The notes beneath the pieces are model-generated. The model had not been told where the DNA came from. It ran no database searches and was given only the letters and a program-made list of their open reading frames with translations. Below, in pieces: positions 21,812 to 49,713 of a stretch of DNA of 64,000 bases (position 1 is its first letter; every line of letters begins with the position of its first letter). Made by a program: the position numbers and the translations under genes. Source of the DNA: Spizellomyces punctatus DAOM BR117 (taxonomy: Eukaryota); NCBI GenBank assembly GCA_000182565.2, contig KQ257470.1. The stretch is one strand, 5' to 3'.

Positions 21812-22890
21812 ATGGTGAGCAGATGGACCCATTCTGTCAGCTTCTCCAAGTTTTAGACAAATTATGTTCAACACTTGAATGCAATTGTGAAGATGGCTCT
21901 GCAAACCGTGCTGATCTTACCATGTTTATAGTCCATCTCGCGCAATTCAAAGATTTTGTCCCTCCTCAACTACCGCCTGCGTATCACGGTACAAGATGGC
22001 AGGACTTTGATCGGACAGATGCTTGCTTTTGACAAGCATATGAATCTGGTTTTGGCGGACTGTGAGGAGTTTCGAAAGATAAAGCCAAAGGGAAAGGAGG
22101 TACAAGTGGAGAGGGAGGAAAAGAGGACCTTGGGCTTGGTCATTTTGAGAGGAGAGACAATAGTGAGCTTGAGTGTCGAGGGACCACCCCCAGCATCGGA
22201 CGATGCAAGAGCACGTTCGGCTGCTGCAATGGCCGGCCCTGGTATGGGACGTCCGGCTGGAAGAGGTCTGCCAATGGCCCCAGCGGGAATGGCCCCAATG
22301 GGTAAGTCTTTCCTTTACTCATCCGGGGTGGGCTGTATACCAAACATTTTTTTTTTTCGCATTTAGGTCTTGGTGGTCCAGTACGCGGTGTAGGTGGTCC
22401 AGCTCCGGGTATGATGCAACCGCCTATGGGACGAGGAGTTGGTGCTCCCCCAGTTCAGTACGGTAGACCTCCTATGGGTCCCCCTCCGGGTATGGGTCGT
22501 CCAGGTGCCCCACCGATGGGTCCCCCCATGGGCGGTGCTCCACCATTCGGTCGTGGAATGCCACCTCCTCCTCCTCAAGGATTCCGTCCTCCTCCGGTAT
22601 GTCATCGCTTTTCCTCGCACCATGAATCATCGATGCTAAACTCTTTGATACATGAATAGGGTGGTCCTGGGGGCTTCAGGCCACCAATGCCGGGAATGCC
22701 CGGAGCTCCTCCCGCGATGCCAGGTATGCCGGGCATGCCGCCACCACGACCAGGGTAAGTTTGAACGACGCCTTGCTTTCTTGGGTGACCTAAGCTGAGG
22801 GACTATTATACGGCTCTAAATAGATTCCCCGCACCACCGCCTGGCTTCAGACCCCCACCAGGTGGCCCCATGCCACCTCGTCCGCAGTAG
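21812..22890 (+). CDS. SMB1: snRNP core protein SmB/B'
   Basis: [38 protein letters not shown]...LGLVILRGE plus Pro/Gly/Met-rich tail; the first coding exon is ATG only (intron 21815-21931). Confidence 0.95.
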
Positions 22891-40462: not shown

Positions 40463-42106
40463 GCCTGCTGGGTAGGATCGAATGTTCTTTTAGTATAGTG
40501 TTTGTCATTTAGGCCCCATTTGGTTCTTGCATAAATATATAGCACGTTTGTTTGCAAAAGAAGGCTTTTGCGACCTGTTGATTTATTTGGGGGGACTTGT
40601 AAATGTTTGATTTCTTTTGGGCAACCGTTAGAAATGAGAATGAACGTTTTAGTCAATTCTGAATTGTTGCAAATGATTGCTGCAATGTCTTTTGTCTTTA
40701 ACGAGTTTCTAACGGTTGTGCATATACCTGCATGACGGGCAGGTCCTTCTTTCCAAGTGATGGATGGAAACTATAAAGTCATAAAGCGCATGGATAGACA
40801 AGAATGATGCAAAGGGCATTAAACAAACAGGACAAGTTTTAATGGTAGTTACACGCTGTCGTAACATGGTCGATACGTTAAATAAAGGGTAGTAAGCGTT
40901 TGCGATGAAAGCAAAGAAAACAGTCGATGCGGGCATCGGCATCTGATATCTTTTGATTCACTCTTTCGACTCAATTGTCGCTTGTGACGGGGCTAAATGC
41001 AGTAACCCGCCTCAAGAAACCTGCTCTTCCTCAAATGATCGTTTTGTTTCCAACCGCACGTTTGAACGCACAGATGAATACTAAAGATCGAGAGTGTTAT
41101 ATGTCATAACATCTCGTTGGCACACACGAAGCAACTTGGACGGAATTACTACGACATTGGAAGACTGTTACGTGATCAGAAATCATATCTTTTATTTTTC
41201 TCGGTGTATCGAAAAGTATGGCGTTTACGCAGTACGATAGAGGTTATGGGCATATCGAGGGATGTGTATGATCTAGATTTGGTATACCCTATAAAGGAAA
41301 AATATCTCTGATCCATGAAACGAAATTCCTAGCAAAATACTCGTAGAGATGCGACCTTTATGTCGTAAATGACAAGTTTTGTCTTCTTGCCAAAGGTAGA
41401 TATGCACAGTACGCAACATTTCAAGTGAGCGCATTTCATTCGACGATGACCTGCGACTGGTTTCTGTCATGCTCGATGCAATAAAAACAATCTTGTTTTA
41501 CAAATTGGATCTCACTGGTTTTTTTTTTTTTTTGCTCCGTATTTTATCGTTAACCTTTTTCAAAAACCCCACTTTTGATACTCTTGTAATGCCATCTTTT
41601 TGGCCCAAACCGCTCGTCATACCCAACATCTCCCATTCTAGAACTCAAAAGTCCGACGATTCAAGGCTCCTTCACATGCCAAAACCCATCACAGTCATTT
41701 GAATGAATGTAACATTGTTATTGGACTATCCGTACCAGCCTTTGATAACAAAACTTCCACATAGGGTTATAAGGTATGTTGGTAGTTATCATTGACGTCT
41801 CTTTGAATGTGATCAGCAGTGGTCCCGTACCCAAATCGGACGAGTTCTGGAGCGCAAACAAAAGTCGACAGGTTGGTTTTTTTACCGCGAGAGACAGATC
41901 ATGACCGCCGTGATAGCAATATTCTCGGGTTGGTTTTTTGGTTTAGAAAAGAGGGGTATGTCCTCTGACATCTGGATACAGAGTATCATCATTTTAGGGA
42001 TAAATTCACCGAGGCAGCATGGGCGAGTATTCCAAATAACTATAGACAAGCGAAAAGTTTGATGGCGTAATTTGGCTGCCTTGATGGTGTGATGGTCTAG
42101 TACGCT

Positions 42107-42138
42107 TGTGTGTGTGTGTGTGTGTGTGTTGTGTGTGC
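42107..42138. repeat. (TG)n microsatellite
   Basis: tgtgtgtgtgtgtgtgtgtgtgttgtgtgtg. Confidence 0.85.
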
Positions 42139-42774
42139 GTTTATCTGTGTTTGCTGGCGGATTGAGAGATTTTGAACGCCGGAAGTGGGGTTTGTCGGGG
42201 TGCCATAGCTGAGATCACCAATGTCGCCGTTCTTGGTTATGATGATAACGGGCAATTTCGGCTGATTTGTATTTAGAAAACAATCATGCCAAGGCAGTTG
42301 CTCGACATTTGACTCTTCCGCCTGCATGTCTCCCAAACGAATCCATAGCATGAGTAGTTCCCTTGAGCTCCACAACCATCTGGTGTGCTACTAAACCAAT
42401 TTTTGTTCATGTTTCCTCATGGTTTATGTAGTCCCTCCGTCCGCTGCTTCTTCCCTTGATGCTGAGCATACCTCGTCAAGCTGGAGATCTTGTCCCTGCT
42501 ATATTAGTAGTATGCAAATGTAACCAACTTGTACAATTATCAAAAACCAAGAATCATATTATAGGCATGTGACATGTTATCATCTGTCGCAAAAGCATGC
42601 AAGGCGCATACGGCCCGCTATCAAAATGCCACGTTGACTTAGATACGATGTCAAAAGGGACCATCCACGGGCCTTAAAATTACAACACACCACCTTCCAG
42701 CTTCCACTACCTGTTGACATCCACAACACAAATGCACAGAAGGACTACATTCACCGCTTTTTGACTACAACCCT

Positions 42775-45250
42775 TCAATAGGAGGAGGGAGGAGGGGGTG
42801 GAGGCGGTTGTTCAGTTGGCGGGGGCGGCGGGGGGGCCCAGGATGGAGGAGGCAACGGCGGCGCACCTCCCCCATAGTAATCGGTCGGTGGCATTGGAGC
42901 TTGGTAAGACTGATAGCCTCCCGGAGGGGGAGGTGGAGGTGGATTCCATGACGGAGGTGGCATTGCGCCAGGTGGTGGCGGCACTGATGCACCTGGAGGT
43001 GCAATACCTGCACAACCCTCACAGTCAGTTTGTGTTTACTTTTTTAAAAGCGCATTGATTGCTTACCAGGTGGCCCAAATCCAGGTGGAGGTGGAGCAGC
43101 AGGATCATGTTGCTGCCATGGTGGCATTCCATTGCCAACATCGGTGGACTTTCGTGCCCACGGAGGTAGTCCACCAGTAGCGCCTTGGGCACCGCCACTA
43201 CCTCCAGCACCTGCCCACGGGGGCCGACCTCCTGGAGCACCAGCAGCTGGACGACCTGGTCCATAGTGGCCCTGATACAACGGTGAAGTATTAGATAAAA
43301 TTTGGCAAAACTTTAAAAGTCAAAGGCTCCCTCCAAGGAAAGAAAGAACAAGAACACGTACCGTACGGGCGCCGGGAGGAGCGCCAGGAGCCCCTCCGGG
43401 TCCAGACTCGCCTAGTTCGGCCATCAGATTCGCATACTCGCTGTCGAGCTTTTGATCCCGTTGTTCAGCTTCCCTCAATGCCTCTGGATTGTTTCTTTGC
43501 ATACAATCTAACCAAATGGACGTTCACAACTTTGTGATTACACTCGCAAGAACAGAGAAAACCTACCTCTGGCAGTGTGCCCCACACCGTTGCAAATACG
43601 GCAAACGAGGTTGACCGTGAAGTTCTTTTGTTCCGGACATTCGAACCTCCGATGACCTACAACGCTCTGAGGTCAGCAAATACAGAGCATTATATGTGCC
43701 TACGGAGATCTATGTACCTGTTCCACCGCAATTGGGACAAATTTGATTCTCATCGTCGCGAAGGGTGCCGTTGAGTTCCGCAAGATAACGTAACTGCATC
43801 CTTTTCAGCTCGTTTTGTCCTTCAGGCACACTTGCTGCCTAGTAGTGGGGAGCAACCGATGAGGAAACATACAAGGATACTATCATAAGAATGTGATAAC
43901 ATACGGTTTCAATCACTTTTTCAATGGCTTTCATGGCTATCTTGACCTTTTCTTCCGAGTCGGCTGTGACCAGACAATGCAAGTCCTCCTCTTCACCAGG
44001 AGCCAATGCGCCATCAGCACGCGCTTTTCCCTCCTTCACGGAGCCTTTTCCTCTGATACTGATTTTGGCACCAGAGTCAGCCTCAATCCTTTTTAGAGTG
44101 GTTCCACGAGGACCTACACATTTCCGCAATCAACATGGGCGCCCCACAAACAATATATCAAGAATGAATCCTTACCAATGAGCTGTCCAATAAAGTTGAT
44201 CTCTGGGTAATCCCTAACAGGAATGTACAATTTATCAGAGACCTTTGTCGGCCTCTTGTAGTCCGCCGGAGGCTTGAAACCTGGGATCTTTCTGAGACCC
44301 TCCTCCACAAGCTTGTGCCGCTCATCTTCGAGCTTTTTACGGTACCGATACTCTCGAGTGTTGATACGCTTGCCGTCGGCGCCGTAAATAGGCTCGGGAG
44401 ACGGCGACCTAAGGGTAACGTAACAAGTGATCAGTAGCCAGATTTTACAAAGTGTCACCACGCAGAAACAAATTCTACCTTTCGGATTCAGGAGGAACAT
44501 AGTCTCCGACCCTCAGCTTGCGGTTTATTTCCTCAAGCCTCATGTGGATAACATATCCATCAAGTTGTTCGGGACTTAGTCCCGTAGGCAAAACGGTCGG
44601 CATGCCCGGAATATTGATCTTGTTATCCGTTTCGCCCCATCGAGAGCGGCGCTTGCGCGGTCTACCTTCCCTGCCTTCAAAGAGGAGAAAGCGAATATGC
44701 ATTGGATGGATTGATGTGAGGTGACGATGCCGCGGTTAGGAAGGAACATGTTAGAAAGGTAAGAGTTACACGATGGGGTTAGTTATCATTAGCGGTAAGT
44801 ACAAGTCTGGGATGAGCACAAGCTAATATCCCGATACACGGACCAGACCACAGAAAGCAACGCAATGCCAAGTGTCCGCAAAAAGTCCAGCCGCTTCGTC
44901 GGCCCATTTATTAAGCTCAGCAAAATCACAGAAACAATCCGGTAACCCCAGCAGTTGAGTAATTTCAAAACCCAGAGCAAAGCACATTCCCATGTACACG
45001 CAGCACTCTGCTCTCCTTTCAAAGCCAGGACAAGGAAGCTAGCGGTCAAGGAAACAAATGGTAACATTGTCACCTCATCTTTACCTTCGTCGCTTGCCGA
45101 TCCGTTGCGAGCCGAAGATCCGTTCGACGTCAGCAGCTTGGGAGCATCTGCCGACGGTGGCGGAGGCGGAGGATGATCGTCATCATCATAGCGCTTTCTC
45201 CGCGTCCCTAGCGGGCTGTTGTTTGTGCCCGTGGTGCGATTTCCGTACAT
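42775..45250 (-). CDS. MSL5: splicing factor 1 / branchpoint-bridging protein
   Basis: [24 protein letters not shown]2 ([19 protein letters not shown]...[10 protein letters not shown]); zinc knuckles; Pro-rich tail. Confidence 0.95.
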
Positions 45251-46167
45251 TTTGGCAACTCTTTGAGCCAATGAATCCTGTGCTTGTTAGGATATTAATA
45301 GATCTTGGTGACTGCGTCTAGCGCCAACAAAGAAGGCTCGTCAGCATGCACGGATGAGATCTAACGTTCGTGGGAATAAAAAGCTGCGGATGTGCCTGGA
45401 AACTGCGCATTTCCCATTTCCAGTTTGAGCACATGACCTGCTGCGCCATGTCACTCATGATTGGCTGCAGCCGCCCACTAATGGCCAATACCCAAATAAT
45501 TGGTAACTGAGCTGGTGGTGGTAAAACCAAAGTGCGTCCCCCCACCCGTTTTTGACAAGCTTTTTTTCTCAAGGTCTCGACTTGTGTGAATACGCATGTT
45601 CAAAACAGAAGCGCAATCTAGACCCAAACGTGTTAAAAGGACATTCCGGTATCTTTTGCTGAAAGCAGCCTACGGGTGGCAATAGATAGTGCAAAGCCGT
45701 CGGGGATTTAAAGGGAAGATCCCCCGTGCTTGCGATGAGCAGCCGAGTGTTGCATACACAAAATGACACAAATGAATACGTTAAAGCCGCAATGGAGAGC
45801 GCAGCCCAAGAGGAAATCGGATCAGCCGTGATTCCGGGCTCCGAGGGCTTGGAATACAAATGTCTCCCACAGTATATCCGACAATGCGGAACAGTACCCA
45901 GCTAAAGGCCTAGAACATGTATCACTCGCTTTTTCTCCAAACAGCGAGTTTCAAAATAACACTTGTTTAAACTCGTCGCTTTTATGCTTGCTCCCCCCCA
46001 ACATCTCTTCCCAACAAAGTCTTTTCAAATCCACCTTTTGTTAACGACCGCATTTGAGCGATTTCCATTCTTTTGTTCGGCCGGAATAAGCGGAATTCAT
46101 GATTTCCCCGCAAAGGCCAACGTATCGCTATTTCCCGTTTCCTGTACGACGGACAAAGCTATCGTTC

Positions 46168-47101
46168 ATGCAAACGGACGTATCTCGCGACATTGACTGG
46201 AAACAGTTTCGAATAGCCGTAGTGGATGACAATGACATGTAGGTTGCGTTCAAGAGAACTAGTGAGGATACCTTTGCTCACACCGCTATGGTTGAACGTG
46301 CACAGCAACCAAAAGATTATCTGCAAACTATTGAAAAAGTTTCTGGACGTGGACATAAAAGCGGCAGATATCTTTGAAAACGGCCAGCTATGCCTCAATG
46401 CCATGGCCCAGCATCGGTACGATTTGGTCCTTCTCGATATTGGTAGGTGGTCCTGTGTCAATTAGCATGTACCAGAGCTGAAAAGTCTCATCATGGCACG
46501 CATCTTGGTTTATATAGAAATGCCAGTATTGGACGGATGCGAAACTGCTCTGCGAATCCGAAGCGGTCTACCTTCACCACCCCTCTCGACCCTCTCCAGT
46601 GCCCCCGAAAACCCCTCACCAACCTCGCCCTCATCACCCACATCCCCTTTCAACACCGACTCTGACACTGAATCACCAGCAGTGCTCAAAGATAACCGCG
46701 ACATACCCATTGTAGTTGTCACATGCAACGCCATGGATCATCAACGACGACACTATCTGTCCCTGGGGGTGAATGCGGTTGTAGCAAAACCTCTACATCC
46801 AGAATTGTTTATCACGACTGTAAAAGCGCATTTAGCGGCATTTGCTGCAAGAGCGCCAAAGGAGGCTGTAGAAATGTGTCAAAGCGACGCCCAACTTTCA
46901 CGATTACCCGATCCGCAAAACCGGTCCCAGGAAGGTGCCAGGGACAGTAACACACCAGGAGACGGTGGCTTATCAACCAAGACGAAATCACGGATGCTGC
47001 GCATACTCGAGTCGGTCTTGCAGGCGGATGGATTGGAAAGAGCGGGAAGCGCGTCTCGCCCAAAAGCTAATCAAGGCAATCACGAGGGTGTAAAGGGCTG
47101 A
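46168..47101 (+). CDS. stand-alone response-regulator receiver protein (3 exons)
   Basis: Spliced: RIAVVDDNDINQKII...YDLVLLDIEMPVLDG...PIVVVTCNA...VVAKP; acidic pair, phospho-Asp, Thr and Lys are all present. Confidence 0.85.
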
Positions 47102-47699: not shown

Positions 47700-49713
47700 T
47701 CACGCATCAGGGCCTACATAATTCTTTGCAGCATCCCAATAATGTACCGCTCTCATCTTTTCCAGGTACTCTTTGATCCTTGCCTCTGTAGGGAGAGGCT
47801 TGAATCGAAAAAACTTGAACAGCCGATCTTTAATCTCGCCTTCCCACACCAATACACATTGATTCGGAGCTTTGGGACCGGTAGACGACGCCTCTTCAGC
47901 ACCATCCTCTTCACCCTTTTTCTCATTCGTCCAGTCGATTCTGCGAAGCATTAGCTTTTTATATGCCTTAATTCCCTTGGGTCCCCCTTCAACAATCACC
48001 ACATTCAGCCCAGAATACAAAATGGCAACTCCGGTCAGATTGTGCTGCTGCGCATTCATGTCCACCTTGAACTTATGCTGCGGATGACTAAGATCGTTGA
48101 TTCTAAACACTGCAACTTCGACTAGGTTGCTGGTGTCTTCTCGCAACTTTTTACGCTTTTTCTCCTTCCGTTGCTCATCAGTCAGCTTTCCGGCTGCATT
48201 CATGTCCTTGTGCTTCTTAAGCCGAGCGGCCATTTGCGCCCGTACTGCTGCCTCCACCTTGGTGGGATCTTGAACAGCTTCCGTACCCAGTACCATCATC
48301 AGATTCGAGATCTTCACCTTGTTTTGTTCTGGTGGTAGCAGGCCTAAACGAATTTTATCCCGCTTCTCCTTTTGTGCCTCCTGACGGCGCTGACGACGCA
48401 ACTTCTTTCGCTCCTAAGGCACGAAACACCACAAGTTGGTTAGACGTGCGCTAGACTCACCAAGGAACAGTTCTCTTGAGACGCCCACCTTTGTCGTTAA
48501 CATAAGAGGCTTCAATTTGGGGTCCCCGGGTTCTGCCGGCGGCTGAATGGGTATTGGATGTTGAACGTAGTTTGTCACGATTGACGTTTCAGACATCAAA
48601 ACCGCATCCGCATCGAAATTTTCGTAGCCGTCAGGTACAAGTGGTGCGTCCCACCATTCCACGGCTGGTGGTGGTTCTTTCTACATTGCACACAATAGCG
48701 TCAGACCAACCCAACACCATCGATGACTTTGGTCCCCCGTCACTTACTCGCATCCCTTGCTCGGCAACAAGATCCAATTCCACATCCATTCCTGTCTTTC
48801 TTACAGACTCGGCAATATCTTGCTTCAATTTCTCCAATTGAGCCTATTTTGACGACACATTAGCTGGTGTAAAGCATATACAATTCAAATGCAGATAGAA
48901 TACCTTGGCGCGCAATTGATTTGCCTCATTTACAAACCGGCCAGGCTGCACAAACTTGAAGCCCTTGCGAATTCTCGGCCGCGGTCCGAGCTTTGTACCC
49001 AACTTTGGATCATAGTACGGATTCTTTGTTGGGTCTGCAAAGTCAGCAGAAACCTGTTCAATCTTCATTTCCTTCTTGGCAGGCTCTTTGGGCTGCGCGA
49101 TACGCTGGTTCGCCTTGACCGTAGCAAAATCAGCCTTGGGAATGAGAGCTCTCGCTCCACCTTTAATGTTCAGTTGCCCGCTTCCGTCCACCATAAGAGC
49201 TGGATGATATGCCATGTTTAGACCACGTTTTTCTTTATCTCCTGGAAGAATTGGAGCCGCCTTTGGAGGGTGAGAATTCACGTAAGAACACAGTTCATTG
49301 TGCCTGAGAGCGGCTAGTTGCCTCCACCTACCAGTAAACTGGGGTTCGCTTGCAAGGACTGCCGGATTCGTTGTTTAGCTTCATCAATTCGCCGTTGCAT
49401 TTCGTCTTGGCGGGATAACGCGGGAGGACTGGGAGCAGCTGGACTGCTCGGTGCTGGGCTCCCAGTTGGTAGCAAACCTTGTTTGCGCATTGCAGCCATT
49501 TTCTCTTGAATCTCCCGAGCTCTCGCTGCCACCTCAGCCTTCACCTGTTACAAGGTCGTCAGCACCATAATGGCCTGGAACGGCAGTTAACTTCGCACCA
49601 ACCTTATCAGCATCGAATACCGCATTGCCCTCACTCTTTGACTTCTTCGCTTCACGCCCTTCATTCCCTCCATCCTCAAGGTGCCTCCGTTTCAACGAGT
49701 CGCTCGACGACAT
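47700..49713 (-). CDS. PRP3: U4/U6 snRNP protein Prp3
   Basis: EWWDAPL, YVQHPIPIQPP, KVKISNLMMVLGTEAVQDPTKVE, VEGGPKGIKAYKKLMLRRIDW, CVLVWEG. Confidence 0.95.

Follow-up and report, generated by a model that had tools for sequence, protein, structure and literature searches.

A cluster of branch-site motifs downstream of a used poly(A) site in intron 1 of the SF1/BBP gene of Spizellomyces punctatus: a possible processing fork

Why should the gene for a protein that recognises branch sites carry, in an oversized first intron, a dense run of the very motifs that the protein binds? The question is raised by a 64,000-nucleotide (nt) stretch of DNA from Spizellomyces punctatus DAOM BR117 (contig KQ257470.1), here called the window, which holds the gene for the branchpoint-binding protein SF1/BBP. 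The original prediction for this locus, made from the letters of the window, took the motifs to be a multivalent array by which BBP senses its own level and tunes the splicing of its own transcript. We find that the motif cluster exceeds chance, that the sequence between it and the acceptor is free of AG, and that a poly(A) site upstream of the cluster, also within intron 1, is used. Tentatively, and with confidence that stops somewhat short of an even chance, we read intron 1 as a processing fork in which the array is a redundant, distant branch region competing with the internal poly(A) site. Positions throughout are those of the window, and the features of the gene all lie on the minus strand.

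The identity of the gene (SPPG_08408) is as predicted. A model of nine exons and eight introns translates exactly to the 532-amino acid (aa) database protein P0001, named by its source 'mRNA splicing protein MSL5 / branchpoint-bridging protein' of S. punctatus DAOM BR117, in which KH, SF1-HH and zf-CCHC domains are recognised (Pfam). Since the spliced model equals P0001, the interval 45084..44675 is the annotated intron 1. It is in phase 1, with donor aag/GTAAAG and acceptor TTGAAG/gca; the borders proposed earlier hold to the base, and the length, given earlier as about 410 nt, is exactly 410 nt. The coding part of exon 1 (45085..45250; 55 codons and one further nt) encodes the N-terminal motif TGTNNxPLGxRRKR, in which N10 and P13 are invariant and G8, L14 and G15 are conserved at 90% or more among 15 aligned fungal SF1 proteins. 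Searched on its own, the exon-1 peptide matched one longer protein, P0001, with 100% identity at the N-terminus of the latter. Exon 2 (44479..44674) opens with the U2AF-binding motif region, which is conserved among the same 15 proteins. A sister-species protein (P0122), identical to P0001 at 516 of 532 positions, has the same residues across the junction of exons 1 and 2. We also weighed the alternative that exon 1 belongs to another gene upstream and that the CT-rich stretch is the promoter of SF1. This was rejected, because the exon-1 peptide is the conserved N-terminus of SF1: its motif is present in all 15 fungal proteins, and 332 of 773 candidate proteins match SF1 residues 1–140 at E ≤ 0.001, many of them across 96–100% of that stretch.

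By annotation and homology the 410-nt interval is thus a genuine, oversized first intron. The remaining seven introns of the gene measure 59–90 nt, in keeping with the claim that intron 1 is longer than most. Intron 4 has its splice confirmed in RNA: a contig of run X1 (root metagenome) is spliced at 43839–43906, with its joint one base off GT-AG. The offset is consistent with a related strain that carries a synonymous ACC>ACG change at the end of the exon, which the aligner absorbed. A metagenome scan for the SF1 locus gave one locus among 111 candidate stretches; it begins at residue 91 and is therefore without intron 1.

Seven TAAY motifs are found in intron 1, six of which sit between 44793 and 44735. 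These are GCTAAT, GATAAC, ACTAAC, TGTAAC, TCTAAC and CCTAAC, at 114, 108, 104, 91, 76 and 61 nt from the acceptor, the first three overlapping one another. Together with two copies of CTTAC (44799–95 and 44763–59) they make up the cluster at 44735..44799, in which every motif of the earlier description (six TAAY in 59 nt plus two CTTAC) was found in its place. The consensus motifs, CTAAC at 61, 76 and 104 nt and CTAAT at 114 nt, all lie more than 50 nt from the acceptor and no better site is nearer. The sole YTNAY between the array and the acceptor is a CTCAC with its branch A at −42; a weak GTCAC is located at 44725–21. In six of the seven other introns of the gene the last YTNAY is 16–22 nt from the acceptor. 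The known high-affinity sites of SF1 are given as UACUAAC and its close variants (PMC3064769). In an assay with human SF1, UCUCAC was not bound, and changing it to UCUAAC made an efficient substrate (PMC3061054).

A 59-nt scan of both strands of the window places the cluster at the maximum for TAAY (6), CTAAY (4) and CTAAC (3), the totals on the two strands being 618, 126 and 59 hits. About 2 in 100,000 scan windows reach the value of the cluster, and all of these are the cluster itself. When the local 130 nt were shuffled with their dinucleotides preserved, the observed density was reached in 2 of 20,000 shuffles for TAAY, 8 of 20,000 for CTAAY and 13 of 20,000 for CTAAC, figures that are uncorrected for the choice of definitions. 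The looser YTNAY is not enriched by the same measure (1099/20000). The cluster therefore exceeds chance, and the signal is specific to the yeast-type CUAAC core. In the rest of the window CTAAY is limited to isolated pairs in seven places and never forms a chain. In a set of 41 crudely predicted short introns, CTAAY is absent from 34 and present once in the other seven; this background is the first-pass set of a home-made dynamic-programming exon chainer, and some of its members are surely false. A second predicted intron of similar size (about 411 nt; 60357–59947, minus strand), in an Ima1-like gene, has no CTAAY, two TAAY and no AATAAA, and is a candidate only. We note a further CCTAAC in the 5′ leader of SF1/BBP, at 45286–45291, some 40 nt before the start codon.

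The second unusual property of intron 1 is the sequence that separates the array from the exon. The 130 nt at 44677..44806 contain no AG, are 66% pyrimidine and are poor in G (13 G); as had been described, only the two weak sites named above are closer to the acceptor. The intron has 13 AG dinucleotides, none of them between 44807 and 44677, and a terminal AG-free run of at least 130 nt arises in 41 of 5000 shuffles of intron 1. The last AG before this zone belongs to a CAG at 44807..44809. The first AG downstream of a branch point is, as a rule, the one used. A stretch free of AG up to the acceptor is what would be expected if a branch point lay in the array, which argues that the array is a productive branch region. 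The acceptor itself, at 44675..44677, is the sole AAG among the eight acceptors of the gene (five are TAG and two CAG). It adjoins an uninterrupted 13-nt pyrimidine tract (44679..44691), and the last 40 nt of the intron are 70% pyrimidine, equal to the highest value among the eight introns. The 5′ splice site GTAAAG (45079..45084) has no G at +5. This base is absent from three of the eight donors, and the donor of intron 1 is not clearly weaker than its neighbours.

Reading frames place a stop in the way of either splicing alternative, as the original prediction held. Translation through intron 1 would meet a TAA at 44791–89 (open reading frame (ORF) 44789..45286), and use of the upstream CAG as acceptor would lead to a premature stop after 13 codons. 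The read-through ORF (153 aa) gave one match among 1.84 billion representatives, to an unrelated protein of 3822 aa (E = 2.7e-4); no assembled read-through product is present in that library.

An unproductive product of another kind is observed. Run X8 is RNA with the same species label. Its reads are at most 60 nt long, are almost without exception first mates, and accumulate at 3′ ends; we take it to be a 3′-tag library. We mapped 352 reads to 42700–45500, drawn from about 6 in 100 of the run. Nine X8 reads include T-runs that are non-templated (median length 18 nt, agreement 0.99) and placed immediately before 44875 on the plus strand; they thus report poly(A) on a minus-strand RNA that ends at about 44875, inside intron 1. 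The genome is not A-rich at this site, so internal priming does not explain the tails. The cleavage and poly(A) addition site (44875..44876) is located 32 nt after an AATAAA (44907..44912), a hexamer that draws its weight from the X8 reads, and immediately ahead of a GU/U-rich stretch (44825..44874) that is a candidate downstream element. X8 depth is 17.6, 22.9 and 15.7 across 44862–45143, fading to 0.59 by 45332–45425; beyond the poly(A) site, at 44768–44861, it drops to 0.27. The 376 nt from the ATG to 44875 contain no in-frame stop, and an RNA ending there would therefore be translated into its tail. Stop-less RNA is a target of non-stop decay, and should be unstable and give no useful protein. 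The intronic poly(A) site is used, giving a truncated, stop-less RNA. The prediction that intron 1 has an unproductive output is thereby borne out in part: the product observed is the premature poly(A) RNA and not the retained-intron or CAG-spliced RNA that had been proposed, neither of which a 3′-tag library could show. The intronic AATAAA is the one canonical hexamer in the non-coding parts of the gene. The terminal 3′ untranslated region (42300–42775) has neither AATAAA nor ATTAAA, yet the main 3′-tag peak is found there.

How might these elements work together? In the reading we favour, each transcript would either be committed to splicing or be cleaved at the poly(A) site of intron 1. The array (three CUAAC, one CUAAU and two weaker UAAC, at 61–114 nt from a weak AAG acceptor) would be the intron's real branch region. 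This is the simplest assignment, because good BBP sites are confined to it, it is AG-free up to the acceptor, and the nearer candidate is of the CUCAC type. Once the array has been transcribed, BBP and U2 would commit the transcript to splicing, with the first AG downstream being used; transcripts not committed in time would be cleaved at about 44875 to give the stop-less, unproductive RNA. Given the distance between the array and the pyrimidine tract, BBP probably occupies the sites of the array unaided by U2AF, and free BBP would matter unusually much for the splicing of this intron. The amount of BBP mRNA produced would in this way depend on free BBP or on the capacity of the early spliceosome. 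The choice of branch point, the contest between splicing and polyadenylation, and any dependence on BBP are our inferences.

The sign of such a dependence deserves comment. The AG-free zone suggests that the array is used productively, and therefore that dependence on BBP is positive rather than homeostatic. If the array is the branch region, more BBP would give more spliced BBP mRNA, and not the negative loop expected of a homeostatic device. Autoregulation of BBP through intron 1 is, as a hypothesis, plausible, with an uncertain sign. The fuller proposal, that BBP gauges its own free concentration on the CUAAC array and that occupancy settles whether its own transcript is spliced or prematurely polyadenylated, we regard as distinctly doubtful.

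Several points weigh against a fork with the array as branch region. A branch-to-acceptor distance of at least 61 nt is far outside that of the other introns here, and a fungus may handle it inefficiently. Array, AG-free zone and poly(A) site are all known from one genome. The junction of exons 1 and 2 has no spanning read or contig (the 3′-tag run has almost no cover there), and no branch is mapped. The RNA evidence for the poly(A) site all comes from the one run label, X8, sampled as above, and the definitions TAAY, CTAAY and CTAAC were settled on with the sequence already in view. Of the six TAAY motifs, three overlap within 16 nt and cannot all be filled simultaneously, leaving sterically about four independent sites. 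AATAAA occurs in the window at about chance frequency (22 and 32 hits on the two strands, against some 20 expected on each). Finally, the truncated RNA may be a minor product. The terminal 3′ peak of the gene has an X8 depth of at least 98 in 42700–42793, where 65 reads overrun the ends of the mapped stretch, and the share of the truncated RNA is only bounded, at no more than about one sixth and perhaps a few percent.

The last three of these points speak equally for the rival that survives best, namely that intron 1 has no regulatory role: it would be merely long, its cluster would have arisen from local micro-repeats, a weak proximal branch would serve for splicing, and the poly(A) RNA would be cryptic noise cleared by RNA surveillance. 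Such micro-repeats can be made out in the C/T/A-rich stretch, as an (NTAAN)3 run and two copies of YCCTTYCTAAC 15 nt apart. The lack of enrichment of loose YTNAY also fits, and AG-free gaps of at least 130 nt are not rare in themselves, with nine in the window. The fold of the whole intron is likewise ordinary (z = −0.50; 27 of 100 shuffles fold as well). Against this, Tandem Repeats Finder gave no array in 44600–45150 and a separate search found no direct repeat within the motif cluster, while the enrichment outlasts dinucleotide shuffling of the very 130 nt from which the micro-repeats would have come. It is also the case that the densest cluster in 128 kb of strand sequence falls in the one gene whose product binds the motif. 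Sequence constraint gives little further help. A contig of run X2 that passes unspliced from exon 2 into intron 1 differs at none of 96 intron bases and at two of about 35 synonymous exon-2 sites (Fisher one-sided p = 0.07), a difference too weak to count, from a run of depth 2.2 that may be DNA. An intron without a role is, on balance, an unlikely account of the locus, and still quite possible because usage of the poly(A) site may be low.

The negative sensor of the original prediction fares less well. There, excess BBP would fill the array as a decoy and so lower productive splicing; the array may divert U2 to sites at too great a distance from the acceptor, or may block the proximal branch site, and the transcript would finish as an RNA that is prematurely polyadenylated, retains the intron or is spliced to the CAG. 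In favour of this model are the consensus sites clustered within the pre-mRNA of the factor itself, an intron that yields an unproductive product, and the premature stops that both retention and the CAG acceptor would bring. A homeostatic loop through a poly(A) site in intron 1 is moreover presented as proven for PCF11 (PMC6458999). A decoy that never completes splicing, however, gives no reason for 130 nt without AG, which the shuffles make uncommon. No retained or CAG-spliced RNA was seen, in a 3′-tag library that could not have shown either, and a literature search (bioRxiv and PMC supplements lying outside it) found no report of SF1/BBP self-regulation. We consider this model improbable as a whole.

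Very improbable, lastly, is a nuclear-retention element, in which several BBP molecules on a slow intron would keep the unspliced transcript in the nucleus until spliced or degraded and so block the export and translation of an RNA with an in-frame ATG for N-terminally truncated BBP: yeast retention by bound BBP offers an analogy, the ATG is present and the array is unstructured and hence accessible, but the case is purely one of analogy and leaves both the AG-free zone and the poly(A) site unexplained. The accessibility is that of a predicted fold, in which the array region (44660–44830) has no stable local structure (z = +0.36; 120 of 200 shuffles fold as well). The ATG in question, at 44700..44702, is in frame with exon 2 (ORF 44475..44735). 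Were an RNA to begin downstream of the poly(A) site, its reading frame would allow it to encode BBP without residues 1–56 and with RKRRSRW kept.

Intron 1 also has a possible long-range pairing. A 13-nt segment that starts 8 nt into the intron (TGAGGTGACAATG, 45065..45077) is complementary to one at 44717..44729 (CATCGTCACCTCA), with 12 of 13 Watson–Crick pairs (92%), and the second arm covers the weak proximal GTCAC and CTCAC. In shuffled sequence 12 pairs are reached in 19 of 1000 trials, and the pairing is absent from the predicted minimum-energy fold of the intron. If formed, it would loop out both the poly(A) site and the motif array. A search of Rfam in E-value mode over 44000–46000 gave no match, and thus no known intron-hosted RNA.

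The window includes two more splicing-related genes. One, at 47703–49677 on the minus strand and some 2.5 kb upstream of SF1, is a homologue of Prp3 with PRP3 and Prp3_C domains; the other, at 21932–22363 on the plus strand, has an LSM domain. Between Prp3 and SF1 there is a response-regulator-like ORF (46466–47098, plus strand). A CA/TG dinucleotide microsatellite, at about 42095–42140, sits just downstream of the 3′ region of SF1, where ORFs read HTHTHTH.

What would follow if the fork were real? Within 410 nt, intron 1 combines several ideal BBP motifs, an AG-free zone, a weak acceptor and a live poly(A) site. It offers a compact and testable case of splicing commitment set against premature polyadenylation, in an early-diverging fungus with animal-like signals. 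Self-sensing by BBP, if true, would for the first time show a core factor of branch-site recognition regulating itself by way of branch-site motifs, and would couple commitment to splicing with a poly(A) site placed just upstream. If orthologues prove to be without the array, it would be a curiosity of one genome. The same literature search, again with bioRxiv and PMC supplements outside it, gave nothing specific on polyadenylation in Spizellomyces introns.

Many splicing and 3′-end factors steady their own level through unproductive processing of their own transcripts. In C. elegans, uaf-1 reportedly has an exon with repeated motifs that resemble 3′ splice sites. The SF1/BBP gene would resemble these systems in that, by its sequence, the motif of the factor is clustered in its own pre-mRNA beside an unproductive outcome. 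It differs in that no poison exon or stop-bearing spliced isoform is seen in intron 1, the product being a stop-less poly(A) RNA. The defining feature of this class is a response to dosage; intron 1 resembles it in its motif cluster and its product. Unproductive splicing is described for PTB (PMC3064769) and for the poison exon of RBM39 (PMC10477243), and an 'ensemble of branchpoints' for CUGBP2 (PMC2715136).

In long introns of yeast, the region of the 5′ splice site is said to pair with the branch region (a finding attributed to Goguel and Rosbash, 1993). The complement in intron 1 is similar in that it joins +8..+20 to a segment that follows the last CCUAAC by 6 nt. Unlike the yeast pairing it is marginally above chance, lies outside the best fold, and would bury the weak proximal branch candidates.

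A closer parallel for the poly(A) site is PCF11, which is autoregulated through a conserved and used poly(A) site, PAS1, in its first intron (PMC6458999; PMC6428223); PAS1 is further stated to make expression sensitive to splicing and elongation (PMC6458999). The likeness consists in an AATAAA-type site in intron 1 of the gene for an RNA-processing factor and in a short, apparently non-functional isoform detected by 3′ mRNA sequencing. PCF11, however, is a cleavage factor that acts on the poly(A) site itself in a negative loop, whereas BBP would act on the competing splicing.

For the array, the nearest relatives are introns with distant branch points. Branch points followed by AG-dinucleotide exclusion zones were described by Gooding et al. 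in 2006 (PMC1431707), and distant branch sites are named for PTB intron 10, alpha-actinin and alpha-tropomyosin (PMC3064769). Intron 1 shares with them consensus motifs more than 60 nt upstream of the acceptor, an AG-free, pyrimidine-rich stretch up to the acceptor, and an alternative outcome; its resemblance to this class is one of defining sequence features. It departs from the vertebrate cases in belonging to a chytrid in which the motifs of other introns are at 16–22 nt, and in having several perfect CUAAC where the former have one degenerate site. If the array is a working branch region, distant branch points of this type, AG exclusion zone included, would also occur outside the vertebrates.

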